Shown here piece by piece: positions 6,385-58,840 of a stretch of 64,000 bases of DNA. This DNA comes from an uncultured Candidatus Saccharibacteria bacterium (GTDB lineage: Bacteria; Patescibacteriota; Saccharimonadia; Saccharimonadales; JAUPVS01): NCBI GenBank assembly GCA_964410185.1, contig CAYPFM010000002.1, positions 6,047 through 70,046 of the forward strand, in the 5' to 3' direction. Both the position numbers and the translations under genes were made by a program. Numbering within the stretch: position 1 is the first letter of the stretch; every line of letters starts with the position of its first letter. Below the pieces are notes generated by a model that saw only the letters and a list, made by a program, of their open reading frames with translations, had not been told where the DNA came from and did no database searches.

Positions 6385-6543
6385 TTTTTGCTTGCTATGG
6401 TTTTTGGAGCACGAGTTAACGAGTTTTTAAGAATTCAGATTAATAGAGTTAAGAATGTTAACAGAGGTGGAATTCTTACATAAGTTAATCTGAATTCTTA
6501 CCTTTTGGTTAAGTGGCGCTCCAAAAACCATAGTAGACAAAAA
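6385..6543 (+). mobile_element. MITE-like palindromic element, copy 1 (~159 bp)
   Basis: Terminal inverted repeats TTTTTGCTTGCTATGGTTTTTGGAGCAC / G(C)GCTCCAAAAACCATAG.AGACAAAAA. Subterminal IR ATTCAGATTAA / TTAATCTGAAT. The interior is AT-rich. No ORF. Confidence 0.7.
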
Positions 6544-19583: not shown

Positions 19584-19614
19584 AAGAACCGGCCGCTTGG
19601 TCGGTTCTTTTTTT
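19584..19614 (+). terminator. Intrinsic terminator after nrdJ
   Basis: AAGAACCGGC-CGCTTG-GTCGGTTCTT followed by TTTTTT. Confidence 0.75.
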
Positions 19615-19710
19615 GTGCCCCAGCTAACAGAGTAAACGGACATAAAATGTTGTAATAAATATACACATTTAAGACAAAGTTCATAATTTTTGACCGAGCG
19701 GAAACACGAA

Positions 19711-24200: not shown

Positions 24201-27200
24201 ACTTTAACAGCGACGGTAAAGCCGATTTGGCGGTTATGGCATCATCCAGTAACGCCGTTTCGGTCTTTATGGGTAACGGCAACGGCACCTTTGCCGCCAA
24301 GGTTGATTACTCGGCGGGTAATTCTCCATCCAGCCTAACGACCGCCGATTTTAACGGCGATGGCAAACTTGATTTGGCGCTGGCGAGTCCAGGGACCAGT
24401 AGTGTTTCGGTATTAATGAACAACGGCAACGGCACCTTTGGTGCAGCAGTGAATTACCCGGGTGGCGGGGGTGCCCAGAGTATTCACGCGGTTGACTTAA
24501 ATGGTGATGGCTTCCCAGACTTGACGGTCGCTAATCTTGGGGCAAACACTATTTCGGTCTTCATGAATAACGGCAACGGCACCTTCGGTGCCAAAGTTGA
24601 TTACACCTCGGCGGCCGGTCCAATCATTATAAGTAACGGGGATATCAATGGCGATGGGCACCAAGATGTGGTCGTTGCCAATGTTACCGCTGGTACGATT
24701 TCTGTCTTTATAAACAACGGCAACGGCACTTTATCTCCTAAAGTCGACTTTACCAGTGGGGGCGGGCCGCGAGGCTTGGCAATTACTGACTTCAATGGTG
24801 ATGGTAAGACGGATGTAGTGGCATCTAATAATAATGGCGGCGTGACGGCTTCGGTATTCCTTGGCAACGGAACAACCACAACTATTAAGAATAGTCTTTC
24901 TGTGACCACCGCCTCGGCCTTTAATACCGCACTCTTTATTAAGGCTGCCGCCAACCAATCAGCCGACCTGCTTCGGGTAGCTGATAGTAACGGGAATAAC
25001 GCCATTTTAAGTCTGGGGGGTACCGGCTCATTATTTGTTAAGAATACAACCGACAGCACCACGGCGTTGCAACTGCAAAACGTTGCTGGAACCAATGTTC
25101 TAACTGCCGACACGACTAACAGTCGGGTAGGGGTGAATCTTGGCACCTTTGTGACCCCAAGCAACACCCTTACCGTGAACGGCATCACCACGGCTGACAG
25201 TCTGGCTCAGGTGGCAATTGGCACCGGCTCAGTCACGAATAAAGGATTGGTGATTCAGGGTGTAGCTAGCCAATCGGCCGACCTATTCCAAACCCAAACT
25301 AGTACTGGAGCGGTTACCGCCAGCATTGGCGCCACGGGCGCGGCATTATTTAAGAATAGTGCCAACAGTACCACGGCCTTCCAGGTGCAAAATGCCGCCG
25401 GCTCTAACATTATGAACATTGATTCAACCAATCGAACGTTACAAGTTAACGGGGGGCCAAGTACCTACACGTTAACTAGTCCTGGGGCATTGTTGGCGGC
25501 GAAAGTTGACTACACGACCTCTGGTGGAGCCGGCGGCCGTGGGGCGGCAACTGGTGACTTTAATGGTGATACCTGGCCAGACCTGGTGTACGTCAACAAG
25601 TCGGCTGGAACAATTTCTGTCTTAATGAACAACGGCAACGGCACTTTTGCGGCGCCCGTAAACTACACGGCTGGTACGGCCGCCAACTACGCCACCGTGG
25701 CCGATTTCAACGGTGACGGCAAACCCGACATTGCGGTGAGTAATAACGGGGTGGCGACAGTCTCAGTATTTATTAACAACGGTGATGGCACCTTTGCCGC
25801 CCAAGCAACCTACGCCATCGGGGCTGGTGCACAAGGTATTACTTCGGCCGATTTCAACGGTGACGGCAAACCCGACATTGCGGTTAATAACCAAACCGAT
25901 GGTACGGTCTCGGTTCTTATTAATAACGGCAACGGCACCTTTGCTACCCAAGTAACGTACGCAGCAACAAGTGGTCCACGTATGATTACAGCGGCCGACT
26001 TTAACAATGACGGCAAACCCGACCTAGCTGTAGCAGTGAATGGTGGCAATAAGCTTGGTATATTCTTGAACAATGGTAATGGCACCTTTGCGGCTATGGC
26101 ATCATACACTAGTGGTACTGGACCGTTTGGTGTAACGGCTGGCGACTATAACGGTGACGGTTTTAACGATGTTGCAGTAGGGAATACCATCGGCACTATT
26201 TCGGTGTTTATGAACAACGGCAACGGCACTTTTGCTCCAAAGGTTGACTATGCGGCGGCCACAACTGCTCCTGACGGTATGGGATCAGCCGATCTGACCG
26301 GAGACGGCAAGGCGGATATTATAGTAGCTAATGCTGCGGCTGGTAGTTCGGTTGTGTCGGTCTATGCCAATAATGGCAATGGCACCTTCGCTGCTCGCCA
26401 AGATGTAACAGCCGGCAACCAACCATTCAGCGTAGCCATTGCCGACTACAATAAAGACGGTAAGTTGGACGTGGCCACGGGCAATAACTCAACGCCAGGT
26501 ATTTCGGTCTACATGGGCACAGGTAGTTCGAGTACAGTTAAAAATAGCTTGTCTGTTACGTCGGCCGGCACCACCGACACGAGTTTGTATATTAAGGCGG
26601 TTAGCAGCCAAACTGGTGATTTGATCCGTGTAGCTGATAGCTCGGGTAACAACCCGATTTTGAGTTTATCAGCCACCGGTTCATTCTTATTACATAACTC
26701 AACCGATAGTACTACAGCCTTCTTATTACAGAACGTTGCCGGTGGCTACACGGCAGTGGCTGACACGGTTAATAATCGCTTTGGCATTAACACTGGTAGT
26801 ATCGTTGCGAGCAACACGTTGACGGTGAACTCGGCAACCACGGCCGACAGCTTGGCTCAAGTTATGATTGGTACCAACGCTACTACCAATAAAGGTTTGG
26901 TCTTGCAAGGTGTGGCCAGCCAGACGGCTAACTTGTTTGAAGCCCAGGATAGCACCGGAACCGTGGTGGCTAGCATTGGCGCCACCGGTACGGCTACATT
27001 GGCAGCCACGGCCGCATCATCGAACCTTGGTACGCTCACTTTGAATTCGCCGGGCTTGCCGGATAACTTTAGTCTTGGCGCATCAGTGTCAGTGAACGGC
27101 TACGTTTACGCGATTGGTGGCTCGAATGGGGCGGCCAAGAATAGCGTGTACTATGGCAAACTGAACCCTGACGGCACAGTTAGCGCCTGGACCACTTCGG

Positions 27201-30200
27201 GGAACACCTTGCCGGTGGCACTCTTCCAGCTGAATGCGGTTGCAACCAACGGCTATATATATGCAGTCGGCGGCACCACGGGTGGTGGTTCGACAGTAGC
27301 CACTGTTTACTACAGCAAGGTGAATAGTGATGGATCGATTGGTGCCTGGACAGCCACGACCAGCTTGCCAGCAGTTAGAAGTAGCGTGTCAATTGCGACG
27401 GCTAACGGTTATGTATACGTGGTTGGTGGTACTAACGGAACGAGCCCACAAAACACCGTTTATTACGCCCAAACCCAAAGCGACGGTACACTAGGTGCCT
27501 GGACCACTTCGGGCAATACGTTGCCGGCTATACGATCATCCACCGGTTACGGTGTCGCCAACGGCTTTATGTATGTGATTGGTGGTACCAATGGTACGAC
27601 GGCTCAGAATACGGTTTACTATGCGGCGCTCAACAGCGATGGAACGGTTGGTGCCTGGACAACCTCTGGCAGTACGCTACCTGGTATTCGCAGTGGTACC
27701 ACGGCGGTAATCGCCAATAACAATGTCTTTGTATTCGGTGGCTTAAATGCTGGAGTGCCACAAGCCAGCATCTATACCACTACCTTGAATGCCAACGGTA
27801 CGGTTAACGCCTGGACGACAGCCACGGCGACGGTACCACTATCGATGTACCAAACTACCGCTGTTGCCGCCAACGGCTACGCCTATCTGTTTGGTGGCTA
27901 TGATGGTACGACGCTGTACGGCCGCATGTACTATGCCCGTTTGCCTGGGTTGAGCACCGGTGCGGTGGTTAACAGCACCTCAACTAGCATCTATGGTAGT
28001 TTACAGATTCAAAACGCCGATGGCACCAGCTTGCTGTTCGCTAACAATATCGCCAACACTATTACGGTTGGCGCGCCTTCGGAAAATCCAACCCTGTTTG
28101 TGCTGGGAACCAAGACATCGGCCGGCGACCCAGCTGGCACTAATGGTGCCATGTACTACAACACCAACACCAACAAGTTCCGCTGCTACGAAAACAATGC
28201 CTGGATTAACTGTTCGGCAGCCGGCGGGGCGGGAACTGGTGATATTACACACACTGGGAACGCCTTTGGTTCGGCCATCACAATCGGGTCAATAGACAAC
28301 CAAACATTAAGTCTTATTACCAACAACGTAGCCCGGGCCACCTTTGATACCTCCGGCAATCTATACCTCGGTAATGGCGTCACAGCTGCTTCACCAAGCA
28401 ACTTCTCGATTCTTGGGACTGGTAGTAGCACGGCTGGGACGACCGGTGGCGCAATTACGATTCGAGCCGGTGCCGGTGCTTCAACAGGTGTTGGTAGTAA
28501 CGGTGGTATCTTCAACTTCTACGGTGGTGACGCCGGCGGTAGTGGTAATAATAACGGTGGCGGCTTTACGCTGAATGGTGGGCAGGGAATTAACGCCGGT
28601 AACGGTGGTGGCGTGTCTATTCAGGGTGGTGGTGCCGACACTGGCTTGGGTGGAAATGTCACAATTGACGGTGGTACATCGCTAAATTCCACTAACGGTA
28701 CAGTCTCGATTGGCACTAATGCTACTTCTGCTTTGAGTTTAGGTAAGAATGGCATAAACACCACCCTAAATGGTAGTTCAGTCGTTATTGGTAACCTGAT
28801 TGGCTCAACATCGGTGACCCTGCAGGCTGGCACCGGTAATGTCCAAATTGGTAATGCTACGGCTGACGGCACTGGTACGCTGCTAGTTTTGGATACTAAA
28901 AACACGGCTGGTGATCCAACCGGAGCAGCTGGTGGCATGTACTACAATAGTTCCATTGGTAAGTTCCGCTGTTACGAAAATGGCGCCTGGGCTAACTGTA
29001 TCGGCGCGGCTGGGGCAGGCAGTGGCGACATTGTTCATACTGGTAACAACTTTGGCGCGCCAATCATTATCGGTAGCTTAGATGCCCAAACATTAAGTTT
29101 GTACACCAACAACGTGGCCCGAGCCACCTTTGATACTTCGGGTAATATCTATCTTGGAAACGGTGTTACTAACGCGGCGCCAGCTGCTTCTGCCATTATT
29201 GGAACCGGTAGCTCGGCAGCCACCGTAGCCGGTTCGGCCATCAGTATCACTGGTGGTGCAGGGAACACGAGCGGTGCTGGTGGGGCTGTGACGATTACAG
29301 GAGGTACGCCGGGTACCACCGGTAATGGCGGCGCTCTGACGCTCAAATCTGGTGCTGGTGGCGCAACATCTGGAACCAGCGGTGCGGTGGTCTTGCAAAG
29401 TGGAAACGTTTCGCTTGGAGCCTCTGGTTCGGTAACTGTCGATAATGGTTCATCGGCCAGCGGTTCACCGGTCTTTAGCCTGGGTGGCACTAATGCCCGA
29501 ACCATTAGCTTGGGTAACACTACCGCTGCCACTACAACTTCAATTCAGGGCGGTACTGGTGCATCAGCAATCGGTATCCAGGCCGGTGCCGGCGGTATCA
29601 TTAGTATCGGCACCACGGCTAATAACTCTATCGCCATTGGCAGCACGGCTACCACGATTGCCGGTACCATCGCCATCGGTAGCAGCGCCCAAACCGGTAC
29701 TATCACGCTTGGTCAGTCCACTTCGGCCAGCGGTCAAACACTGAACATCCAAAATGGTGCCACTACTGGCACCACAGCGGTTAATATTCTATCTGGTGCC
29801 GGCTCGGCCGGTACCGCTAGCCTGCTCATGGGTAACAACGCCCGGGTTACCCAAATTGACCTTGGTAACGTTGCTGCAGCAGCAGCTCGTACCATTAACA
29901 TTGGTACTGGCTCTAACACAGTTGGAATTGATACCATTAACATTGGTACTGGTGCCACCAGTGTGTTAACTGGTAAGACCATTAACATCGGTACCGGTAC
30001 CCCAACTGGTTCGGGTACTAACAGCATCACCATGGGGACCTTAACCGGCGCCAGTACGACCTCCATCCAGGGTGGAACTGGTTTGGGTGCGATACAGATC
30101 CAGTCCAATGGTGGCTTAATCTCAATTGGCACCAGCTCTACCAGCCCGGTCTTTATTGGGGGTACTGCTGGTAACAATCAAGTAAAGATTACCGGTGGGA

Positions 30201-33200
30201 CCAGTGGCGTCACCATTGGTGACGGCGGCGTCGCTAACACCTTGCAGTTTGGTAACACTACTGGAGCAGTTACCCAAACAATTAACGTTGGTACTAATGC
30301 GACGGCGAGTTCACAGACCAACGTAACAATCGGTTCGGTAATTGGTGCTAGCACAACAACCTTGCAATCCGGTACAGCCGGAGTGACTGTTAGTACCGGC
30401 GCTGCGAACTCGACTACCGCTTTGCAAGTTAAGCGGGCCGACACAACGACAGCCTTGGTGGTTGATACGTCTAGCAACAAAGTAAACATTGGTACCGGTA
30501 GCGTTCCTGGTATTCCAGGTGCATTCACTCTTGGTGCAACCAGTAGTCCGACTGGACAAGGCGGCCACGCTATGGCCAGCGCCAACATGGCCGGTGGCAA
30601 ATTTGTATACTTATTACCTGGCAATAGCAACACCGTCTACTATGCCGTCCAAAATGCTGATGGCAGCTTGGGGGCCTGGACGGCCGGTCCAACACTTCCA
30701 GCTACTTTGTTTGGTACTATGATGACGATCGATGCTACGAATAACTACATTTACGTTATCGGTGGTTATACGAGCAGCGTTAGTGGTACAGCCGCCGCTA
30801 ACAAGGTCTACTATAGTGCTCTGAACACCTCGACTGGTGCACCGGGCGCTTGGTCAACCAGTGCCAATAACCTGAGCACGGCCGTTGGTCTGGGTGCAGC
30901 ATTTGTAAGTAATGGCAAATTGACCGTTCTTGGTGGCGCTACTCAAGTTGGCGGCTATGGTTGCTCCTTCCAGACCTGCTTATTACCTCTTAGTGGAACC
31001 GAAATTGCTAACACCCAAACGAGTACGCTCACAGCTGGCGCGCCCGGCGCCTTTGCCGGTAGCACCGCCTTGCCACAGGCTTTGGCTAACTTTGGCTTTA
31101 CTACCAATGGATTCACCACTTATGTTTTTGGTGGGCTCGACTCGACCAACACTAGCGCCACGGTTTTCTATACCAACTTTTTATCGGGCGGTGCACTTGG
31201 CAGCTGGACAACGCAACCTATTGGCGAGAACAACGGTGGATTTGGTCAGACTGCTGCGTATAGCTCAACAACTGGATATATATATGACCTCGGTGGAGCA
31301 AAATATTATAATGGCTCAAGCTGGCTATCCTTGCCATCCACACTGCTTCCATTTGGAGCAGCTGATATACCAACGATAGTTGGCTCTTACATGTATCAGA
31401 TGATTGGAACTAGCTCTGGTCTGGGCACCAGCTACAACTATACTCTTATACCACCTGCCACTGGTACAAGCCTGAATGTTAGTGGTAATCAAAATAACTA
31501 CGGCTTTTTTGTCCAACAATCATCCTTGAATGCAACGGCCGCCTTCCAAGTTCAAAATGCAGGCGGTACCGGAATCCTAACAGTCGATACAACCAATGGC
31601 GCGGTAAAGATTAACTCTACAGGTACCGTTGGTACGGTTGAGAAGTTCCGGGTCAACACCCCAACCACCGTTGATAACTTGGCGAATACTATCCTTTCGG
31701 CCAACGCTGCTACTTCAAAGGCTTTGGTGGTTCAGGGTGCTGCCAGCCAGACTGCTAACCTCCTTGAGTTGCAGACCTCAACTGGTAGTAAAGTCGCCAG
31801 CTTTAACAGCAACGGTGTCCTCGACCTGAGTGCCGCCAGTGGTGCCGCTCCAGCCGGCACGGGCATTACCTTGGGCGATAAGATTTCGCTCGGTAGCGCC
31901 GGTTCGTACACCAACTCATATGGTCTTGGCCTCCAAAACAACGCCTTGGTTCTGTACGCGGGCAACAGTGCTTCGGCCACCATCTCGATGCGCGCCGCAG
32001 CCAACGGTGGCCAGTACTCTAACGGCGGCGACAGCTTCACCTTCAACCCAACCACTGGTGCCCAAGTTAATAACATTCAATCGGCCAGCGCCGTTGGCTT
32101 AACGGTTAAAGGCGCTGTTAGTCAGACCGCTAGCTTGCAAGAGTGGCAGGACTCCACTGGCGTGGCCTTAGCTGGGGTTAGTGCCGCCGGTACGCTAACC
32201 TTTAATAACCTCGGGGCCACCACCTCAGCAGTCGACATTACGACGGGTGGGGTAGGGACTGCTTCAATCCTACTTGGAGCAAATGCTGGCTATATTCAAA
32301 AATGGCTTGGTAGTGGCAATGACAACGTCTTGGTAACGGTTGCTCCAAATGCTACAGTCGGGACGCCAACCCAAAGTGGTGGTTTGATCTTGCTCGGCAC
32401 CAGCTACTGGAACGGCTCGGCGGCAGTTAGTGAAAATTTGCAATTACAGTCACAGCGTAATAGTACCAATGCTGGTGATTACTTCCTGCAAGTGAGAGGC
32501 GGTATTAAAATCGATAACCAATACAGTGGTGCAGTTGCTACCGTTGTCCGTGGCGCCAGTGGTCAGGTTGCGCACCTACAAGACTGGCAAGATTACGCAG
32601 GCATTGTCCTGGCTTCCATCGATGCTAGCGGCAACATGACGCTGAACGGCTCGCTGAATATTGCCACAGGCACACTCAAGGTCGCCGGTGTTGATCGCAT
32701 CGATAACAGCGGTAACCTGGTTAATGTGACCTTTAACGGTAATACCATCGGGGTTGGTTACGGTGGTACTGGTAGTACTACCTTCACGGCCAATGGCCTA
32801 TTGTTTGGCAATGGATCTGGCGCCATTCAGGCGACCGCCGCCGGTAACAGTGGCCAGTGTTTAATTGCCACCACTGGTAGCGCGCCAACCTGGGGTTCAT
32901 GCGCACCAGCCTCCGCCGGCAACGTTAACCAGGGCGGCAATAACTTTGGGGCGGCCGTAACACTGGGTGCAACCGACAACTTTGGTATTAATCTGTTGGC
33001 CAACAACACGGCTGTGGCTCGCTTCTCGGCTAGTGGTCAGGCAGTCTTCCAAAACGGTGCCGACTCGGTAACTGCTCTGCAGGTCCAGAACGCTGGCGGC
33101 ACTAGCCTATTCACCATCGACAGCACTAACTCGCGCGTCTACGTTGGTAACCCAACCGCTGATGGCACCGGTACGCTGCTGGTTCTGGATACCAAGAACA

Positions 33201-33754
33201 CCGGTGGTGATCCAACCGGCGTCAACGGTGGCATGTACTACAACAGCAATCTCGGTAAGTTCCGCTGTTACGAAAATGGTAACTGGAAAGACTGTATCTA
33301 CAATGTCCGAACTGCTTCCAAGACGGCCGACCAAACCTTTAGCGCCACCAGCTACGCCGACGTCAGTGATCTGTCATTCAGCGTTCTAGCCAACAAGGTT
33401 TACAAGCTCAACTGTACGCTGCTGGTCTCGGTTCCAAGTGGTACCAACGGTGGTAACTTGTCCACCAACGGCCCAGCCAGCCCAAGCCAACTGACTGCCA
33501 CCTTTGCCAAGTCGCTCGACCAGTCCAGCGGTGACAACTACGCCACCAGCAGTAGCTACGACGACGCCAGTGCCGCCACCACCTTTAAGGTCAACACCGT
33601 TTCGACCGGTTCCAACCGCTTCATTGTCAGCTACAACGCCATCTTGGTGAACGGCGTCAACAACGGCACCTGGAGCTTGCGCTCTAAGGCCTTCGATGGC
33701 AGCAGCTCGATTACCATGTATGCCAATAGTTCATGTGACCTAAGGCCGTTATAA
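21215..33754 (+). CDS. Giant (4179 aa) membrane-anchored surface protein. Contains tail-fibre-like repeats, 2x FG-GAP/VCBS propellers, 2x Kelch-like propellers, Gly-rich beta-helix-like tracts and a C-terminal tip domain.
   Basis: A single uninterrupted ORF. N-terminal TM is SLASGILLGLIAILVIGTLIF. 123-aa repeats end LPNADGTVCLSSGNC. There are 14 DFNGDGKPD..NNGNGTFA blades. Six NGYVYAIGG...DGT.GAWTT blades form the first Kelch-like block. The motif GMYYN...KFRCYEN.W..C occurs three times. Confidence 0.85.
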   Translation: MEESAPQNLPPKDDIMTPLDSLEGTTQMNVTPTVGTSLDGGSVAAPAPNRDPVQISDGGETDVTEAALPANRFAEFWHNKLIRRVSLASGILLGLIAILVIGTLIFQKTHKVSLSQAERVAQIKDQSVNLKDTTATAGPASLRVGVSTFFVNGDASVQGVLRFSNGSSYGQFDSSQVSGSQTYKLPNSSGTICLDSGNCSFASASALAAVQNAASSAGAAAGAAQATALATQYIGGSGITVSGSVITNSGVLSVNGSVGAINLQGTANQIAITNANGTISLALPQDIGLASTPTFGGLVLNSVGTQNGFNLCDSSNNCSYGINSIVQGGNGFGTDVIVGANDNSGLQLITNNTTRLSITNNGVITLGGANSDRITALAQFSGGTPLVFQGATDDFFTTSLVITNPTSNRNIILPNADGTVCLSSGNCSGAGGYGDVLNGGNNFNSTANLGTNDNFGLNLKTNNVTRFMISNTGATTLLGNVTSSADAILGTNSSNRLTINSQISGATPFVFQGATNDSFTTTFTITDPTANRNITFPNADGTVCLSSGNCTGPVGTGDVLQGGNNFGGTMVLGSNDNFGFNLKTNNTNRLTISNTGAAAFTGDLSVAGNNVFGTNSANRITFNGEVLGGAPLVFQGATDNAFATFLLVADPTATRTITLPNADGTICLSSGNCTTSGGSGDVNNGGNNFNSTMSLGTNDNFGLNLKTNNTTRLSISNGGQVTVQGNFVVNGDTLLGATSAQSVTMQAQNLFAPNDLNIDTYTQYIDTTNNQVGFGTLPLGTARVGILATNGGDGLTVNNGLSAGNIANFQDNGVNVVTIANEGATTFRNATNSVAAFQVQNAAGATIVNTDTTNRTLNVNGGPSTYSFTASGPLLSPKVDYTVGANPLGATYGDFNGDGFQDLAIVNSGSNTVSILMNNGNGTFANKVDYTTGVAPFDVISADFNGDGKPDIAVVNNSGGVGGGRMSVFINNGNGTFAAKVDYVTSDGPYSIVTGDFNSDGKADLAVMASSSNAVSVFMGNGNGTFAAKVDYSAGNSPSSLTTADFNGDGKLDLALASPGTSSVSVLMNNGNGTFGAAVNYPGGGGAQSIHAVDLNGDGFPDLTVANLGANTISVFMNNGNGTFGAKVDYTSAAGPIIISNGDINGDGHQDVVVANVTAGTISVFINNGNGTLSPKVDFTSGGGPRGLAITDFNGDGKTDVVASNNNGGVTASVFLGNGTTTTIKNSLSVTTASAFNTALFIKAAANQSADLLRVADSNGNNAILSLGGTGSLFVKNTTDSTTALQLQNVAGTNVLTADTTNSRVGVNLGTFVTPSNTLTVNGITTADSLAQVAIGTGSVTNKGLVIQGVASQSADLFQTQTSTGAVTASIGATGAALFKNSANSTTAFQVQNAAGSNIMNIDSTNRTLQVNGGPSTYTLTSPGALLAAKVDYTTSGGAGGRGAATGDFNGDTWPDLVYVNKSAGTISVLMNNGNGTFAAPVNYTAGTAANYATVADFNGDGKPDIAVSNNGVATVSVFINNGDGTFAAQATYAIGAGAQGITSADFNGDGKPDIAVNNQTDGTVSVLINNGNGTFATQVTYAATSGPRMITAADFNNDGKPDLAVAVNGGNKLGIFLNNGNGTFAAMASYTSGTGPFGVTAGDYNGDGFNDVAVGNTIGTISVFMNNGNGTFAPKVDYAAATTAPDGMGSADLTGDGKADIIVANAAAGSSVVSVYANNGNGTFAARQDVTAGNQPFSVAIADYNKDGKLDVATGNNSTPGISVYMGTGSSSTVKNSLSVTSAGTTDTSLYIKAVSSQTGDLIRVADSSGNNPILSLSATGSFLLHNSTDSTTAFLLQNVAGGYTAVADTVNNRFGINTGSIVASNTLTVNSATTADSLAQVMIGTNATTNKGLVLQGVASQTANLFEAQDSTGTVVASIGATGTATLAATAASSNLGTLTLNSPGLPDNFSLGASVSVNGYVYAIGGSNGAAKNSVYYGKLNPDGTVSAWTTSGNTLPVALFQLNAVATNGYIYAVGGTTGGGSTVATVYYSKVNSDGSIGAWTATTSLPAVRSSVSIATANGYVYVVGGTNGTSPQNTVYYAQTQSDGTLGAWTTSGNTLPAIRSSTGYGVANGFMYVIGGTNGTTAQNTVYYAALNSDGTVGAWTTSGSTLPGIRSGTTAVIANNNVFVFGGLNAGVPQASIYTTTLNANGTVNAWTTATATVPLSMYQTTAVAANGYAYLFGGYDGTTLYGRMYYARLPGLSTGAVVNSTSTSIYGSLQIQNADGTSLLFANNIANTITVGAPSENPTLFVLGTKTSAGDPAGTNGAMYYNTNTNKFRCYENNAWINCSAAGGAGTGDITHTGNAFGSAITIGSIDNQTLSLITNNVARATFDTSGNLYLGNGVTAASPSNFSILGTGSSTAGTTGGAITIRAGAGASTGVGSNGGIFNFYGGDAGGSGNNNGGGFTLNGGQGINAGNGGGVSIQGGGADTGLGGNVTIDGGTSLNSTNGTVSIGTNATSALSLGKNGINTTLNGSSVVIGNLIGSTSVTLQAGTGNVQIGNATADGTGTLLVLDTKNTAGDPTGAAGGMYYNSSIGKFRCYENGAWANCIGAAGAGSGDIVHTGNNFGAPIIIGSLDAQTLSLYTNNVARATFDTSGNIYLGNGVTNAAPAASAIIGTGSSAATVAGSAISITGGAGNTSGAGGAVTITGGTPGTTGNGGALTLKSGAGGATSGTSGAVVLQSGNVSLGASGSVTVDNGSSASGSPVFSLGGTNARTISLGNTTAATTTSIQGGTGASAIGIQAGAGGIISIGTTANNSIAIGSTATTIAGTIAIGSSAQTGTITLGQSTSASGQTLNIQNGATTGTTAVNILSGAGSAGTASLLMGNNARVTQIDLGNVAAAAARTINIGTGSNTVGIDTINIGTGATSVLTGKTINIGTGTPTGSGTNSITMGTLTGASTTSIQGGTGLGAIQIQSNGGLISIGTSSTSPVFIGGTAGNNQVKITGGTSGVTIGDGGVANTLQFGNTTGAVTQTINVGTNATASSQTNVTIGSVIGASTTTLQSGTAGVTVSTGAANSTTALQVKRADTTTALVVDTSSNKVNIGTGSVPGIPGAFTLGATSSPTGQGGHAMASANMAGGKFVYLLPGNSNTVYYAVQNADGSLGAWTAGPTLPATLFGTMMTIDATNNYIYVIGGYTSSVSGTAAANKVYYSALNTSTGAPGAWSTSANNLSTAVGLGAAFVSNGKLTVLGGATQVGGYGCSFQTCLLPLSGTEIANTQTSTLTAGAPGAFAGSTALPQALANFGFTTNGFTTYVFGGLDSTNTSATVFYTNFLSGGALGSWTTQPIGENNGGFGQTAAYSSTTGYIYDLGGAKYYNGSSWLSLPSTLLPFGAADIPTIVGSYMYQMIGTSSGLGTSYNYTLIPPATGTSLNVSGNQNNYGFFVQQSSLNATAAFQVQNAGGTGILTVDTTNGAVKINSTGTVGTVEKFRVNTPTTVDNLANTILSANAATSKALVVQGAASQTANLLELQTSTGSKVASFNSNGVLDLSAASGAAPAGTGITLGDKISLGSAGSYTNSYGLGLQNNALVLYAGNSASATISMRAAANGGQYSNGGDSFTFNPTTGAQVNNIQSASAVGLTVKGAVSQTASLQEWQDSTGVALAGVSAAGTLTFNNLGATTSAVDITTGGVGTASILLGANAGYIQKWLGSGNDNVLVTVAPNATVGTPTQSGGLILLGTSYWNGSAAVSENLQLQSQRNSTNAGDYFLQVRGGIKIDNQYSGAVATVVRGASGQVAHLQDWQDYAGIVLASIDASGNMTLNGSLNIATGTLKVAGVDRIDNSGNLVNVTFNGNTIGVGYGGTGSTTFTANGLLFGNGSGAIQATAAGNSGQCLIATTGSAPTWGSCAPASAGNVNQGGNNFGAAVTLGATDNFGINLLANNTAVARFSASGQAVFQNGADSVTALQVQNAGGTSLFTIDSTNSRVYVGNPTADGTGTLLVLDTKNTGGDPTGVNGGMYYNSNLGKFRCYENGNWKDCIYNVRTASKTADQTFSATSYADVSDLSFSVLANKVYKLNCTLLVSVPSGTNGGNLSTNGPASPSQLTATFAKSLDQSSGDNYATSSSYDDASAATTFKVNTVSTGSNRFIVSYNAILVNGVNNGTWSLRSKAFDGSSSITMYANSSCDLRPL
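22130..23400 (+). repeat. In-frame 369-bp (123-aa) tandem repeats inside the giant gene (3 full units plus a partial unit)
   Basis: The codons for ADGT(V/I)CLSSGNC recur at 22460, 22829 and 23198, exactly 369 bp apart. Confidence 0.85.
23694..27006 (+). repeat. In-frame 1656-bp (552-aa) tandem duplication inside the giant gene. Each unit is a 7-blade FG-GAP/VCBS propeller plus a linker.
   Basis: Unit starts AFQVQNAAG...NRTL.VNGGPSTY lie at 23694 and 25350. Each unit has seven NNGNGTF-type blades and ends ..KGLV.QGVASQ.A.LF..Q.STG.V.ASIGATG. Confidence 0.8.
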
Positions 33755-35239: not shown

Positions 35240-35503
35240 ATGAAAGCAGTTATTTTATATCACCCCAATTCTGAGCATGCCCGGATTGTCGAGGAGTACG
35301 TCCACAACTTTTCGCTCGGCAACAGCCACAAGATTGATCTCATGAGTTTGGAGACGCGCGAAGGCGCAGCCGAGGCAACATTGTACGACATTGTAAGTTA
35401 CCCAGCTTTGATGATAATAGACGAGTCTGGCCGTTTACAAAAAGTTTGGCAGGGCTCGACCATGCCGCTCATGAACGAAGTCGCCGGCTATCTTGTCGCT
35501 TAA
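35240..35503 (+). CDS. Small hypothetical protein (87 aa), possibly thioredoxin-fold without CxxC
   Basis: MKAVILYHPNSEHARIVEEY...YPALMIIDESGRLQKVWQG shows a beta-alpha-beta pattern. There are no cysteines. Confidence 0.5.
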   Translation: MKAVILYHPNSEHARIVEEYVHNFSLGNSHKIDLMSLETREGAAEATLYDIVSYPALMIIDESGRLQKVWQGSTMPLMNEVAGYLVA

Positions 35504-35521
35504 GCCGTTCTAAGCTATACT
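35493..35521 (+). promoter_or_regulatory. Promoter of the ileS leader
   Basis: TTGTCG-N17-TATACT overlaps the end of the upstream small CDS. Confidence 0.55.
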
Positions 35522-35527
35522 AACCCC

Positions 35528-35764
35528 TGTAGCAATACACCCACAATTTGGTAAATCCCTTGGAGCGGCCATCAACCGCAATCTCTTATACAGAGAAGGG
35601 AGTGGAAAGAACGGCAAGCCTGCCAACTAGACTCCACCGGCAAATGCCCGTCACAGCAATAATTAAGCGCTAAAAGAATCATTTCTTTTGGAAATCAGAT
35701 GGAACCATCCGCACGCATACAGCAACGCGGATTCTGATAACCGGAAAGAAATGATTTTTTCTTT
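35528..35764 (+). promoter_or_regulatory. T-box-like leader RNA upstream of ileS
   Basis: The hairpin GCGG-CCAUCAA-CCGC (35565-35579) displays AUC (Ile codon) followed by A. The antiterminator-like element is AUCAGA-[UGGAACC bulge]-AUCCGC...GCGGAU-UCUGAU (35694-35738). An outer 12-bp helix pairs 35677-88 with 35745-56, and a U-run follows at 35757-64. Confidence 0.55.
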
Positions 35765-35785
35765 ATAAACCCAGAAGGAGACAAG

Positions 35786-38731
35786 ATGAAGTTCAAACAA
35801 GGCAGTCGCCGCAAAGCCCTCGAATACGAAAAGGACTTGGTGCAGTATTGGAAACAAAATCAGACTTTTGAAAAGTCGGTGAACAACCGGCCTAAGTCCA
35901 ATGCATACATTTTTTATGACGGCCCACCATTTATCACTGGCGTGCCACATCATGGGAATTTGCTGTGCACGATTATCAAAGACGCCGTGCCACGCTACTG
36001 GACCATGAAAGGCAAGCACGTCGAACGAACCTGGGGTTGGGACTGCCACGGACTGCCGGCCGAAGTCTTTACCGAAAAGAAGCTGGGTATTCACGACCGC
36101 CGCGACATCGGCACCAAGATTAGCCTCGAAGAATACATTACCACCTGCCGCGACAACATGGTGCAGACCGGTGACCTCTGGGAAAACACCATCGACCGGA
36201 TTGGTCGCTGGGTCGACTTTAAGGGCTCCTACAAAACCATGGACAAAGACTACATGGAATCAGTCTGGTGGGCCTTTAAGCAACTCTACGAAAAAGGCAA
36301 GATCTACGAAGGTGAGCGGGTGCTGATGTACTGTACCCGCGACGCCACGCCGATTAGTAAGGCTGAAGTCGCCATGGACAATAGCTATCAAGACGTCACC
36401 GATCCATCGGTCTACGTCAAGTTCAAGTTAGCTGACCGTGATGCCTACTTGCTCGCTTGGACGACCACGCCGTGGACATTGCCGTCCAACAGCGCGATTG
36501 CCGTCAATAAGGACCTCGAATATGCCGAAGTTGAGCTAGAAGGGGAGCATTTCATCCTGGCCAAGGACTTGCTCGACAAGGCTCTGACGGACGAAAAACA
36601 TCAGGTATTGAACTATAAAGTTGTTCAAACTTTCAAGGGCGAACAATTAATTGGGCAGGCCTATCTACCCCTGTTTAAAGAGCATAAAGAGCTGGCCAAG
36701 CAGGGTGCCTTTAAGGTCTATCACGCCGACTTTGTCCATGCCGAAGACGGCACCGGCATCGCCCACGAATCGCCAGCCTATGGCGAGGAAGACTATCTTT
36801 TGAGCAAACAAGCGCGGTTCCCGATGATTCTGAATACTGACGACAGCGGCTTATATACGGAAGGCGAATGGAAGGGCCAACTGGTCTGGGATGCGAACAA
36901 GACAATTGCCAAAACCTTGCACGAGCGCGGGGATGTTTGGAAGATCGACTACATCACCCACAGCTATCCGCACTGCCACCGTTGTGGCACCAAGCTGATG
37001 TACCGCGCTCACCCCAGCTGGTTCATGGACATTGATGGTCAGCGTACCGAAATGCTCGAACAAAACGGCGACGTCAACTGGTTCCCAAGCCACATCAAAG
37101 ACGGTCGCTTCGCCAAAACCGTCCAGTCGGCACCAGACTGGAACCTCAGCCGCGACCGCTTCTGGGCCACCGCCATGCCAGTTTGGAAGGGCACCGACAA
37201 AGACGGCAAAGAACACATCAAAGTTGTTGGCAGCTACGCCGAGTTAAAAGAGTTATCCGGCGTCGAACTTGACGACTACCACCGCCCGTGGGTCGACGAC
37301 ATCACCTTTAAAATCGACGGTGTGGTTTACCAGCGCATCGATAAGGTCTTGGACTGCTGGTTCGAAAGCGGCTCTATGCCATTTGCCCAGTTCCACTATC
37401 CGTTCGAGAACGTCCAAAAGTTCGAAGAAAATTTCCCGGGCGACTTCGTGGTCGAGTACGTCGGCCAGGTGCGCGCTTGGTTCTACTATATGCACGCCGT
37501 CAGCGTGGGCTTGTTTGGCAAAAGTGCCTTCAAGAACGTGGTCGTGACCGGCTCGGTTATGGGCACCGACGGCAAGAAGCTGAGCAAGTCGCTCGGCAAC
37601 TACACTGACCCGAACGAGGTCATGGACCAATACAGCTCCGATGCCCTGCGTTTTGTGCTGCTCAGCGCGCCACTATTAAACGGCGAAGACTTCACCCTCA
37701 AAGATAAAGAAGTGGCTGACGTAAACCGCAAGTTGGCCATGATCTGGAACATGTACGACTTCTTTACATTGTATGCCGACGTTGACGGCTGGGCCTGGGA
37801 CGGCTCCTTGTCCGACCCAACCGAAGACCTGGAAAATCCGTTGGATCAATGGATTGTCTCGCGTGTGCACCAGCTATCGACCGTGGTTGACGAACACATG
37901 CAGAAGTACGACATTCCAAACGCCATGAAACCATTGCTAGAATTCGTCGACGACGCCAGCAACTGGTACGTCCGCCGCAGTCGCAAACGCTTCTGGAAGA
38001 GCGACAACGACGGCGACAAGCAAGCTGCCTACCGCACCCTGCATTACGTCCTGGTGCAAACTTCTATGATTTTCGCGCCGTTCACACCGTTCCTATCCGA
38101 AGAACTGTATCGCTCGCTGACTGGCGGTGAATCGGTCCACCTGCTCGACTGGCCAGAGGCCGGTCACATCAATGAGCTACTGGTTCGCAACATGCGCTTG
38201 CTGCGCCATCTAATTACCATCGGTTTGAGCCTGCGTGCCGAGGCCGCTATTAAAGTGCGCCAGCCGTTGGCCAGCGTCACCTTGCAGGAAGGTTATCGCT
38301 CCTACTTAACCGACGACATGCTCGAGATTCTTAAAGAAGAATTAAATGTTAAGAAAGTGAAATTTGATGACAGTAAGTTCGATGCCGAAAAATCCTTTTT
38401 GGAAAACCTGGAAGCCGGCAACTTTAGTCAGCTGCATCGCCTCGAACTAGATACGGCCTTAACTCCAGCGCTGCGCCAAGAAGGCTTGATGCGCGAAGTC
38501 GTGCGCCAGGTCCAAAACGCTCGCAAGCAAGCTGACTTGCAGGTGGACGACCGAATCGAACTGAGTTTGGAAACCGCCGACGCTGACTTGGCTGCGGCAA
38601 TCACCAAACACGCCGACGAAATTGTGGCCGAGACGCTGGCTGTTAAATTAGTGAAACACGAACTTAAGCACGTCACGACCGCCAAGGTCGAAAGCGCTGT
38701 GCTGACGATTTCGCTACAAAAGTCTGCCTAG
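35786..38731 (+). CDS. ileS: Isoleucyl-tRNA synthetase (type 2-like)
   Basis: HIGH motif PHHGNLL, KMSKS motif KLSKSLGN, and a CP1 editing region with TTTPWTLPSN. Confidence 0.95.
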   Translation: MKFKQGSRRKALEYEKDLVQYWKQNQTFEKSVNNRPKSNAYIFYDGPPFITGVPHHGNLLCTIIKDAVPRYWTMKGKHVERTWGWDCHGLPAEVFTEKKLGIHDRRDIGTKISLEEYITTCRDNMVQTGDLWENTIDRIGRWVDFKGSYKTMDKDYMESVWWAFKQLYEKGKIYEGERVLMYCTRDATPISKAEVAMDNSYQDVTDPSVYVKFKLADRDAYLLAWTTTPWTLPSNSAIAVNKDLEYAEVELEGEHFILAKDLLDKALTDEKHQVLNYKVVQTFKGEQLIGQAYLPLFKEHKELAKQGAFKVYHADFVHAEDGTGIAHESPAYGEEDYLLSKQARFPMILNTDDSGLYTEGEWKGQLVWDANKTIAKTLHERGDVWKIDYITHSYPHCHRCGTKLMYRAHPSWFMDIDGQRTEMLEQNGDVNWFPSHIKDGRFAKTVQSAPDWNLSRDRFWATAMPVWKGTDKDGKEHIKVVGSYAELKELSGVELDDYHRPWVDDITFKIDGVVYQRIDKVLDCWFESGSMPFAQFHYPFENVQKFEENFPGDFVVEYVGQVRAWFYYMHAVSVGLFGKSAFKNVVVTGSVMGTDGKKLSKSLGNYTDPNEVMDQYSSDALRFVLLSAPLLNGEDFTLKDKEVADVNRKLAMIWNMYDFFTLYADVDGWAWDGSLSDPTEDLENPLDQWIVSRVHQLSTVVDEHMQKYDIPNAMKPLLEFVDDASNWYVRRSRKRFWKSDNDGDKQAAYRTLHYVLVQTSMIFAPFTPFLSEELYRSLTGGESVHLLDWPEAGHINELLVRNMRLLRHLITIGLSLRAEAAIKVRQPLASVTLQEGYRSYLTDDMLEILKEELNVKKVKFDDSKFDAEKSFLENLEAGNFSQLHRLELDTALTPALRQEGLMREVVRQVQNARKQADLQVDDRIELSLETADADLAAAITKHADEIVAETLAVKLVKHELKHVTTAKVESAVLTISLQKSA

Positions 38732-38742
38732 ACCTGTTTGCT

Positions 38743-38924
38743 GACCGGCGGTTTCGTGACATTACTTTTTGCTTGCTATGGTTTTTGGAGCACGAGTTAA
38801 CGAGTATTTAATGATTCAGATTAACTTATTTAAGAAAGGTGAGCTAGGATTATTAACATTTTTAATCTGAATTCTTACCTTTTGGTTAAACGGTGCTCCA
38901 AAAACCATAGCAGCACTGGAGGAG
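38743..38924 (+). mobile_element. MITE-like palindromic element, copy 2 (plus a ~20-bp flank shared with copy 3)
   Basis: Same TIRs and subterminal IRs. From 38755 to 38921 it is base-for-base the reverse complement of 47732-47898 (checked by hand). Confidence 0.75.
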
Positions 38925-47731: not shown

Positions 47732-47901
47732 GCTATGGTTTTTGGAGCACCGTTTAACCAAAAGGTAAGAATTCAGATTAAAAATGTTAATAATCCTAGC
47801 TCACCTTTCTTAAATAAGTTAATCTGAATCATTAAATACTCGTTAACTCGTGCTCCAAAAACCATAGCAAGCAAAAAGTAATGTCACGAAGCCGCTGCCG
47901 G
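47732..47901 (-). mobile_element. MITE-like palindromic element, copy 3 (an inverted, identical twin of copy 2)
   Basis: Its reverse complement reads GTGACATTACTTTTTGCTTGCTATGGTTTTTGGAGCACGAGTTAACGAGTATTTAATGATTCAGATTAA..., identical to copy 2. Confidence 0.75.
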
Positions 47902-58697: not shown

Positions 58698-58840
58698 TTT
58701 TCTTTGCTATGGTTTTTGGAGCACGAGTTAATCAGTTTTTAAGAATTCAGATTAAATAACTTCAGAATGTTATTAACTTAGTTAATCTGAATTCTTACCT
58801 TTTGGTTAAATGGTGCTCCAAAAACCATAGCAGGCAAAAA
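58698..58840 (+). mobile_element. MITE-like palindromic element, copy 4 (shorter centre)
   Basis: GCTATGGTTTTTGGAGCACGAGTTAA...TTAATCTGAATTCTTACCTTTTGGTTAAATGGTGCTCCAAAAACCATAGCAGGCAAAAA. The centre is 26 bp. Confidence 0.7.

Follow-up and report, generated by a model that had tools for sequence, protein, structure and literature searches.

A candidate T-box leader of ileS in a Saccharibacteria genome, with a putative terminator helix that encloses the antiterminator-type core and competes with Stem III

The stretch of DNA analysed here (64,000 nt; hereafter the window) belongs to a Saccharibacteria (TM7/CPR) genome, in which the element under study is carried by the leader of ileS. The ORF at 35786–38731 encodes IleRS (TIGR00392, 816 bits; cutoff 621). 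All strings listed in a first-pass annotation of this DNA were found in place by a sequence check, among them TTGTCG-N17-TATACT, for which a promoter had been claimed; a promoter scan recovered the same site and a TAnAnT hexamer stands at the matching place in the aligned relatives. An upstream 87-aa ORF (stop at 35503) runs at its end into the −35 hexamer, and transcription would be expected to start at about 35528. The signals at the two ends of the leader are the following.

35493–35521, + strand: putative sigma-70-type promoter from the promoter scan (−35 TTGTCG at 35493–35498, 17-nt spacer, −10 TATACT at 35516–35521)
35776–35788, + strand: Shine-Dalgarno (SD) sequence AGGAG (35776–80) and ileS start codon ATG (35786–88), read from the sequence

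The 5′ half of the leader, by which the tRNA would be captured, contains four features.

35565–35579, + strand: ultrashort Stem I, read from the sequence (GCGG at 35565–68, 7-nt loop CCAUCAA at 35569–75, CCGC at 35576–79)
35583–35595, + strand: variable insert hairpin CUCU-UAUAC-AGAG between Stem I and Stem II, from the minimum free energy (MFE) fold
35598–35638, + strand: Stem II, from the MFE fold, with the S-turn-like strings AAAGAAC on its 5′ side and ACUAGAC on its 3′ side
35639–35653, + strand: Stem IIA hairpin GGC-AAAU-GCC (35639–48) followed by the F-box string CGUCA (35649–53), read from the sequence

Stem I is a 15-nt hairpin with a 4-bp stem and has no distal elbow-binding platform; the same holds for 112 of 121 leaders. 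Its loop contains the isoleucine Specifier AUC (35571–73) followed by A (35574), upstream of a gene for IleRS. The AUC hairpin is found in the same 112 leaders, with AUC invariant, the next base A in nearly all, and 13 different compensating stems across the set of 121. GCGG-CCAUCAA-CCGC had been proposed as an ultrashort Stem I that displays AUC plus a purine, and these counts bear the proposal out. Fast tRNA capture by transcriptional T-boxes is said to depend on a long Stem I with an elbow platform (PMC7583486); the window leader is without one, an observation that counts against a transcriptional model.

Some relatives hold inserts of differing sequence between Stem I and Stem II. Stem II, whose exact pairs were assigned by eye, has a distal hairpin GGCA-AGCC-UGCC at 35613–24. 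An xxUAGAx string, mostly AGUAGAA, is present in 118 of 120 leaders (ACUAGAC being the version in the window), and the Rfam alignment of one relative (L057) puts the corresponding region on Stem II. In the same alignment CCCGUCA of this relative falls on the F-box, which is CGUCA in the ileS T-box of M. tuberculosis (PMC11297988). In the window, the Stem II S-turn and the IIA/B F-box are seen as sequence strings alone.

Further downstream, the T-box discriminator motif 5′-RRRxG-Stem III-AA-3′ (PMC7583486) was found at 35665–35693 in the form of AAGCG, a 9-bp Stem III and AA, with both flanks invariant. The flanks and the core that follows them are listed below.

35665–35669, + strand: RAGxG purine string AAGCG, directly 5′ of Stem III; A, G and G invariant in the leader alignment
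35692–35693, + strand: AA linker from Stem III to helix A1, invariant in the leader alignment
35694–35738, + strand: antiterminator-type core made of A1, the UGGAACC bulge, A2 and a 14-nt loop
35694–99 and 35733–38, + strand: helix A1, AUCAGA paired with UCUGAU; covaries
35700–06, + strand: T-box bulge UGGAACC; UGG.ACC invariant in the leader alignment
35707–12 and 35727–32, + strand: helix A2, AUCCGC paired with GCGGAU; covaries

The first-pass annotation had called A1-UGGAACC-A2 a textbook T-box core, in agreement with the invariance of UGGNACC and the covariation of both helices. At the N of UGGN, 113 leaders have U, 4 have A (the window included) and 4 have C (L010, L036, L047 and L140). 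As A73 is usual for tRNA-Ile, a UGGA bulge would be mismatched to it, and its presence in the window counts against a tRNA-Ile-sensing model. ARAGORN found only a tRNA-Leu and a tRNA-Trp gene, and no tRNA-Ile gene, in the window and about 140 fetched loci. An identical leader in a JGI contig, which may share the window's sample, speaks against an assembly error as the source of UGGA. In the window, A2 has an A-U pair at its foot. A G-U wobble at this position is considered the aminoacyl sensor; it was found in only 24 of 45 relatives, which likewise counts against the model.

A covariance model was built from 45 relatives, with the window left out. It matches the window at 35663–35761 (74.6 bits, E = 1.9e-15) as well as 144 of 160 relatives, with 72 out of 80 loci in the genome set and likewise 72 out of 80 in the metagenome set; each of these matches lies upstream of ileS and on the same strand. 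Since the pattern is conserved in relatives, it exceeds what would be expected by chance. The Rfam T-box model RF00230 (gathering threshold 93 bits) gave no match in the window at that threshold and none at E ≤ 10 on 35440–35840. Two relatives, L057 and L051, align with RF00230 over its full length, at the sub-threshold scores of 27.9 and 19.4 bits; because relatives do align end to end, the miss is ascribed to insensitivity of RF00230 and not to absence of a T-box. Lack of an Rfam match, or loss of the bulge or of the AUC loop in relatives, had been named beforehand as grounds for giving up the T-box reading. The first of these was indeed observed, with the explanation just given, whereas bulge and AUC loop turned out to be conserved. 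The class II model of TBDB has been searched in Actinobacteria only, and a full-text literature search returned no paper in which T-box occurs together with Saccharibacteria, Patescibacteria or TM7.

The missing Rfam match, a bulge with UGGA rather than UGGU and the A-U pair at the foot of A2 would also be in keeping with a decayed, non-functional T-box remnant with an ordinary constitutive hairpin downstream. However, hardly any variation is seen in the Specifier, the bulge or the RAG/AA purines, and compensatory changes were found in five helices across 144 leaders from relatives at 65–86% protein identity, so that decay appears very improbable.

Between the purine string and the start of ileS, two helices make use of the same nucleotides.

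35670–35691, + strand: Stem III hairpin of the proposed ON state (CUAAAAGAA at 35670–78, loop UCAU at 35679–82, UUCUUUUGG at 35683–91)
35677–35691, + strand: 5′ strand of the outer (putative terminator) helix, from the MFE fold; part of Stem III
35741–35756, + strand: 3′ strand of the outer helix, CCGGAAAGAAAUGAUU, which pairs with 35677–35691 in the proposed OFF state
35755–35764, + strand: U-tract UUUUUUCUUU at the base of the composite hairpin, the presumed termination site

Three pieces of Stem III form the outer helix 5′ strand: the final 2 nt of the Stem III 5′ strand, the UCAU loop and the complete 3′ strand; in the 12-bp part of the outer helix, AAUCAUUUCUUU (35677–88) is paired with AAAGAAAUGAUU (35745–56). 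Owing to this overlap, Stem III and the outer helix cannot coexist. A pseudoknot between loop and tail alongside Stem III was considered and set aside on steric grounds, the 4-nt loop not being fully pairable. With the 3′ tail withheld, the MFE fold of the window leader consists of Stem III and A1/A2 (−22.3 kcal/mol); with the tail present, it is the nested hairpin (−30.6 kcal/mol). Averaged over 42 leaders, the corresponding energies come to −21.9 and −32.2 kcal/mol. The nested hairpin is also the MFE fold of 35670–35775 (−33.4 kcal/mol, z = −6.3), with none of 200 shuffles as good. In the full-length equilibrium ensemble, A1 is paired with a probability of 0.98 in the window and of 0.93 on average over 95 leaders; over the leaders, the probability of Stem III is 0.01 and that of its 3′ strand being paired downstream of A1 is 0.84.

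Both alternative helices are maintained by compensatory changes. In a structure-blind alignment, 99% of the cells of Stem III are paired and 7 of its 9 pairs are compensatory; no permutation out of 5000 was as good in a partner-swap test. For the outer helix, 13 of 15 pairs are compensatory in the MAFFT alignment and 13 of 13 in the covariance model alignment (95% and 83% of cells paired), and its partner-swap test gave −15.3 kcal/mol for cognate versus −8.1 kcal/mol for swapped strands, again with 0 of 5000 permutations as good. RNAalifold, run on the MAFFT alignment, predicted A1/A2 only, since the competing helices, together with register shifts, cancel each other out; helix support was drawn from explicit pair counts, partner-swap tests and the covariance model rather than from RNAalifold. 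Given that covariation supports Stem III as well as the outer helix, the competition is one of terminator versus Stem III. An OFF-state helix built from the 3′ strands of A1/A2, i.e. a canonical terminator or sequestrator, was not found by ensemble folding to 70 nt past the U-run. The first-pass annotation had described the arrangement as nested, with no mutually exclusive pair. The nesting holds, since the outer helix encloses A1/A2 and A1 stays paired; the lack of a mutually exclusive pair does not, since Stem III excludes the outer helix. Most likely, A1/A2 is present in both states and Stem III is the switching element.

Subgroup B (about 15–20% of the leaders; e.g. L004, L005 and L010) is built differently: the Stem III hairpin is absent and the nested terminator is kept, its outer helix being formed by the RAG-containing linker AAGUCCC paired with GGGGCUU. 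The Stem III model is therefore not the whole story for the leader family, and some mechanism independent of Stem III must exist in this subgroup. These leaders lend some weight to a scheme in which the composite hairpin always forms, Stem III is uninvolved, and a tRNA on the exposed UGGN bulge spoils the terminator by its bulk or by distortion; the nested fold does leave the bulge unpaired and A1/A2 intact. In the subgroup to which the window belongs, however, Stem III is kept by compensatory changes, and as the covarying Stem III overlaps the outer helix, selection there keeps a state without the outer helix. Besides, an antiterminator alone, without Stem III, shows no appreciable tRNA binding (PMC7583486), and the bulge lies at least 19 bp above the U-tract, where the lower stem could still terminate. 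For the window we consider this scheme unlikely.

The last nucleotide of the outer helix is 35756, and the U-run (35755–60) is followed by CUUU; in 93 of 95 leaders, U makes up five or more of the 8 nt counted from where the run begins. With a stable hairpin base adjoining a U-tract, the structure qualifies on sequence as an intrinsic (Rho-independent) terminator. A simple terminator scanner missed it because its loop is longer than 8 nt. A permissive terminator scan gave 153 matches on one strand and served only to locate a canonical intrinsic terminator, a hairpin with a U7 run, elsewhere in the window (19586–19616); its presence is in keeping with a transcriptional output.

Translational control had been put forward as one way in which the leader might act. 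This suggestion is not sustained by the data: systematic sequestration of the SD sequence was not found across the leaders (mean probability of the SD being unpaired 0.56, no conserved sequestrator), and in 14 genomes the element lies 0.4–1.6 kb upstream of ileS with one or two other genes between. The spacing between element and SD is variable. A wider post-transcriptional scheme would make the OFF duplex of about 30 bp a processing site (e.g. for RNase III), or a means of altering access to the U-rich or SD region, with the U-tract incidental. It draws on several observations: the characterised ileS T-boxes with ultrashort Stem I are all translational; A1 3′ strands are often UCC or CUCC, resembling an anti-SD; one relative (L051), which is without the outer helix and the U-run, has a canonical-type competitor near the SD; and RNase III is reported to cleave a T-box leader in S. 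aureus (PMC7913692). Against it stand, in addition to the accessible SD and the remote position of the element in the 14 genomes, the U-tract that follows the helix in nearly all leaders and the pairing of A1 throughout, by which its anti-SD-like strand is held and not released. Such a scheme appears quite unlikely.

The leader is thus probably a tRNA-Ile-sensing T-box, most plausibly one that attenuates transcription of ileS by means of a terminator invading Stem III. We infer tRNA binding, termination and a docking-dependent protection of Stem III, which would be combined as follows. The ultrashort Stem I, Stem II with its putative S-turn and the putative IIA/F-box element would, on the pattern of the actinobacterial class II ileS T-boxes, capture tRNA-Ile, with its GAU anticodon on AUC, and the 3′ half would fold first as the discriminator RAGxG-Stem III-AA and then as A1-UGGNACC-A2. 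In the ON state, the NCCA end of the uncharged tRNA would pair with the bulge; uncharged tRNA-Ile would keep Stem III docked and polymerase would read through the U-tract. In the OFF state, with tRNA absent or charged, Stem III would be unheld: the next 16 nt (35741–56) would extend A1 downward, displacing the 5′ strand of Stem III and pairing with its loop and 3′ strand. The product would be one long interrupted hairpin (outer helix, A1 and A2) with its base at UUUUUUCUUU, where transcription would stop. In the ileS T-box of M. tuberculosis, Stem III is coaxial on the bottom helix with uncharged tRNA and moves off with a charged-tRNA mimic (PMC12647780), which makes a switch based on Stem III docking physically plausible. 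As to the broader proposition, namely that a CPR lineage of T-boxes reads tRNA charging via Stem III docking, with a terminator that invades only undocked Stem III and an antiterminator that never melts, we judge the chances to be evenly balanced. The literature search found no description of a terminator wired to unzip Stem III in T-boxes.

Comparison with known systems places the leader between two classes of T-boxes. With the actinobacterial class II ileS T-boxes of M. tuberculosis, M. smegmatis and N. farcinica (Sherwood et al. 2015 as cited in PMC7583486; PMC11297988; PMC12647780) it shares ileS as the regulated gene and AUC as the Specifier. Common to both are also the S-turn strings on Stem II, the IIA hairpin followed by the F-box string CGUCA, and the succession of RAG linker, Stem III, AA and A1-UGGNACC-A2 core. 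Stem I is short and devoid of the elbow-binding distal platform in both. They differ in host (a CPR bacterium here, an actinobacterium there) and in the OFF state: in class II, a sequestrator breaks the antisequestrator (A1/A2) and its 3′ strand pairs with the SD region, whereas in the window leader A1/A2 would persist, Stem III would be attacked, a U-tract follows and the SD would be free.

With the class I transcriptional T-boxes of Firmicutes (B. subtilis tyrS and glyQS; RF00230), the proposed scheme has in common that uncharged tRNA leads to readthrough, and the leader itself has in common with them the RRRxG-Stem III-AA motif, the 7-nt UGGNACC bulge, an OFF state more stable than the ON state and a U-tract after the hairpin. 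Class I members, however, have a long Stem I with K-turn, Specifier loop and distal platform where the window leader has an ultrashort one, and the 5′ strand of their terminator is provided by the A1 and A2 3′ strands, terminator and antiterminator being mutually exclusive. In the window, that strand lies upstream of the antiterminator, in Stem III, and the two structures are nested. Beyond T-boxes, the wiring may be likened to that of the ZTP, preQ1 and purine transcriptional riboswitches, in which invasion of a ligand-stabilised helix by a downstream strand sets out from an adjacent stacked helix and is blocked at its start by the bound ligand. These switches sense small molecules, whereas here Stem III would be held by tRNA-dependent docking.

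As a T-box, the leader would extend this mode of regulation to the Saccharibacteria (CPR), beyond the reach of standard detectors. If the reading as a Stem III-invading attenuator is correct, the window would hold the first natural T-box with A1/A2 intact in the OFF state. The holding of the tRNA 3′ end (A1/bulge/A2) would then be uncoupled from the genetic switch, two functions combined in all T-boxes described to date. A transcriptional T-box functioning without a Stem I elbow platform would challenge the rule that such T-boxes need a long one, and evolution would have recruited the undocking of Stem III, known from smFRET in M. tuberculosis, as the primary allosteric output. With a tRNA-binding helix in both states, the leader would serve as a natural construct in which Stem III docking becomes testable as the decision step. 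Subgroup B would represent a more minimal version, whose terminator has the RAG purine string itself as its lowest part. With respect to annotation, the element was found in about 90% of the Saccharimonadales ileS operons sampled, and in the 14 genomes with intervening genes it putatively also governs unrelated small genes placed before ileS.

The open reading frame at 35786-38731 encodes isoleucyl-tRNA synthetase (TIGR00392, 816 bits; cutoff 621). The elements of the leader that precedes it are listed below, all on the + strand and, except where indicated, read from the sequence.

35493-98 and 35516-21, +, promoter: TTGTCG, 17-nt spacer, TATACT (a promoter scan agrees)
35565-79, +, Specifier hairpin GCGG-CCAUCAA-CCGC, with AUC at 35571-73
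35649-53, +, F-box CGUCA
35670-91, +, Stem III, CUAAAAGAA-UCAU-UUCUUUUGG (sequence, and covariation in relatives)
35677-88 and 35745-56, +, outer helix, AAUCAUUUCUUU paired with AAAGAAAUGAUU, then UUUUUUCUUU
35677-91, +, 5' strand of the outer helix: Stem III loop, Stem III 3' strand and last 2 nt of the Stem III 5' strand
35694-35738, +, T-box core AUCAGA-UGGAACC-AUCCGC-[14 nt]-GCGGAU-UCUGAU

A sequence check located every string named in the first-pass annotation where it had been placed. The nested hairpin, in which the outer helix encloses the core, is the minimum free energy fold of 35670-35775 (−33.4 kcal/mol, z = −6.3; none of 200 shuffles was as good). The closest IleRS relatives (65-73% identity, full length) all come from Saccharibacteria/Saccharimonadales MAGs; another 80 contigs, from metagenomes, reach 77-86% identity across the N-terminal 273 residues. 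TGGNACC lies 60-140 nt upstream of the ileS start in most genome and metagenome loci. For the region that spans discriminator (Stem III plus A1/bulge/A2) and terminator, a covariance model built from 45 relatives with the window left out matches window 35663-35761 (74.6 bits, E = 1.9e-15), the sole real match in 64 kb, as well as 72 loci in each of the two sets of 80, genome and metagenome, every match being upstream of ileS and on its strand. The identical leader, UGGA included, is carried by a JGI contig encoding an identical IleRS. The observed leader pattern far exceeds chance.

The Rfam T-box model, RF00230, gave no match in the window at the gathering threshold, nor at E <= 10 when just the leader was scanned, and in relatives it scored 27.9 and 19.4 bits, below the threshold of 93. 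These sub-threshold alignments span the relatives end to end, with Stem I, Stem II, the IIA hairpin/F-box, Stem III and the T-box sequence placed as in the anatomy proposed here, and it is on this and on the conserved parts that the T-box reading was kept. A 4-bp stem with a 7-nt loop presenting AUC at loop positions 3-5, followed in nearly all cases by A, occurs in 112 of 121 leaders; the stem appears in 13 different compensating versions (including GCGG/CCGC, GUGG/CCAC, GCAG/CUGC and ACAG/CUGU). The S-turn-like Stem II string AGUAGAA (ACUAGAC in the window) was found in 118 of 120 leaders, and CGUCA is the F-box reported for the T-box of ileS in Mycobacterium tuberculosis (PMC11297988). In the alignment of relatives, the purines of the RAGxG-Stem III-AA motif and UGG.ACC are invariant, and A1 and A2 covary. 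We regard it as very probable that the leader is a tRNA-Ile T-box. Its decoding half is like that of actinobacterial class II (ultrashort-Stem-I) ileS T-boxes, a likeness proposed earlier that was borne out. Searches with the TBDB class II model covered Actinobacteria only (PMC7778990), and a full-text literature search did not find T-boxes paired with Saccharibacteria, Patescibacteria or TM7.

By eye, Stem I in many leaders is flanked as UCC-NNN-GA-[Stem I]-GA-GGA, a K-turn pattern (C-stem, 3-nt bulge, tandem G-A pairs). On the 5' side the window reads UCC-CUU-GGA (35556-35564), and its 3' flank consists of AA and an inserted hairpin. Two relatives' loci, L010 and L033, are without the 4-bp/7-nt AUC hairpin and have a longer 5' domain, ~100-230 nt upstream of the bulge, containing GAGUUUCUGAC; their Stem I may be of another type, or their specificity may differ. 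The L010 bulge is also UGGC.

It had been claimed that the terminator-like helix and the T-box core are nested rather than mutually exclusive. The core is indeed nested, but an exclusive pair exists: the 5' strand of the outer helix is no extra sequence, being made of Stem III parts, so that Stem III (ON state) and the outer helix (OFF state) cannot coexist. Covariation among the homologous leaders, the check proposed earlier, revealed compensatory changes in the Specifier stem, A1, A2, Stem III and the outer helix. In a structure-blind MAFFT alignment of 45 leaders, 99% of Stem III cells were paired, with 7 of 9 pairs compensatory (slid controls of the whole ON-state structure, 35-61% paired), and 78% of outer-helix cells were paired despite register slips, with 13 of 15 pairs compensatory (slid controls of the whole OFF-state structure, 38-53%). 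When 74 leaders were aligned to the covariance model, all 13 outer-helix pairs were compensatory and its segments were 95% and 83% paired, versus 38-51% when slid. Partner swapping, which needs no alignment, gave −15.3 kcal/mol when the tail (the 3' strand of the outer helix) paired with a Stem III 3' region of the same leader versus −8.1 when it came from another leader, and −7.0 versus −3.2 for the two Stem III strands; for both helices none of 5000 permutations reached the observed value, and the result held when each sequence class was represented by a single leader (n = 16). These patterns indicate that selection maintains both helices.

Examples of three strands that covary (5' and 3' strands of Stem III, then tail)
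CUAAAAGAA; UUCUUUUGG; AAAGAAAUGA
CUUUUGAG; CUCAAAGG; CCUUUGAGG
CUAAGAAGA; UCUUUUUAG; CUAAAUAGGGA

With the tail withheld, the leader folds into the textbook discriminator; with the tail included, it folds into the nested hairpin (−22.3 and −30.6 kcal/mol, respectively, in the window; means of −21.9 and −32.2 over 42 leaders). Ensemble folding of 95 leaders, extended 70 nt beyond the U-run start, left A1 paired (mean P = 0.93; window 0.98) and Stem III lost (P = 0.01), with its 3' strand pairing downstream of A1 (P = 0.84); no alternative helix using the A1/A2 3' strands was found. Described T-boxes, in contrast, build their terminators or sequestrators from these strands. Since the leader also falls below the Rfam score, it is a variant of the T-box kind. 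At L051:3774-4001 the T-box core is present and the outer helix and U-run are absent; a canonical-type competitor can form there between UCCGGC, the A1 3' strand, and GCCGGA, which lies ~10 nt ahead of the SD. Members of the family have evidently swapped platforms.

We infer that the leader binds tRNA and terminates transcription, and lean, with moderate confidence, towards a full model of attenuation through Stem III. Stem III would fold first and A1/A2 after it. Uncharged tRNA-Ile would bind through its anticodon at AUC and its NCCA end at the bulge, with Stem III and the RAG/AA purines docking on A1, and the polymerase would clear the U-tract. Without docking, the tail CCGGAAAGAAAUGAUU would invade Stem III by branch migration, lengthening A1 and completing the long hairpin at the U-tract. 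This model builds on smFRET of the M. tuberculosis ileS T-box, where Stem III stacks coaxially on the antisequestrator bottom helix when the tRNA is uncharged and departs from it when a charged-tRNA mimic is used (PMC12647780).

Several observations favour transcription attenuation over SD masking. At least five U occur in the 8 nt from the U-run start in 93 of 95 leaders, and the same genome has an ordinary hairpin-plus-U terminator, GAACCGGCC-GCUU-GGUCGGUUC-U7, at 19586-19616, just 3' of a stop codon. Consistent SD pairing was not found across leaders (mean P unpaired 0.56), and in six of them a spacer of 134-236 nt precedes the start codon. In 14 genomes (L002, L011, L013, L020, L026, L035, L037, L039, L059, L065, L073, L076, L077 and L079) one or two unrelated small genes separate the T-box and terminator from ileS by about 0.4-1.6 kb (370-1640 nt). 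Named by reading translations, these are GNAT-like, cupin-like, CYTH-like, Tag (DNA-3-methyladenine glycosylase I-like), Nudix and SGNH-hydrolase-like. They often overlap the ileS start codon, so a tRNA-Ile-controlled operon has received different passengers. Attenuation fits poorly with the opinion that a transcriptional T-box requires the long Stem I platform (PMC7583486), and this tension is part of the interest.

The tail in many relatives (e.g. L003:3960-3975 and L078) is AAAGAGGUGAU, strongly SD-like, and its partner AUCACCUCUUU resembles the 16S rRNA 3' end; the window's own tail (AAAGAAAUGAUU; compared at 35741-56) is not SD-like. Such tails are probably a by-product of purine/pyrimidine strands, though they may interact with the ribosome.

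Subgroup B leaders (genome loci L004, L005, L007, L010, L012, L015, L038, L041, L044, L052 and L071; metagenome examples L082, L086, L105, L125 and L128) have no Stem III hairpin. The linker that contains RAG reads AAGUCCC or AAGCCCC and pairs, directly 5' of the U-tract, with GGGGCUU, enclosing A1/A2. L070, with a 3-bp mini Stem III, looks intermediate. In subgroup B a related but different competition must apply, perhaps RAG docking versus the bottom terminator pairs.

The window bulge UGGA predicts U73. As the last UGGN residue, 113 leaders have U, 4 have A and 4 have C, spread over different Stem III classes; no tRNA-Ile gene was found in the window or in the roughly 140 relatives' loci scanned. 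This residue may covary with the tRNA or be a tolerated mismatch. At the foot of A2 the window has an A-U pair; the G-U wobble sensor, although the commonest state, occurs in only 24 of 45 relatives.

Three loci (L009, L016 and L023) share the window's upstream gene and have no leader in the ~200 nt upstream of ileS. A promoter-like TATAAT-type box lies ~10-20 nt before their ileS start, so some lineages have lost the T-box.

Elsewhere in the window, a 120-140 nt element occurs in four copies (6394-6534, 38775-38911, 47732-47868 and 58706-58831), one beginning 44 nt past the ileS stop codon. Inverted arms GCTATGGTTTTTGGAGCAC, perfect or nearly so, delimit it, a pattern with 8 matches against 0.01 expected, and it may represent a MITE-like or long-hairpin intergenic repeat. 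A single 4179-aa ORF occupies 21215-33754, upstream of the ileS region.
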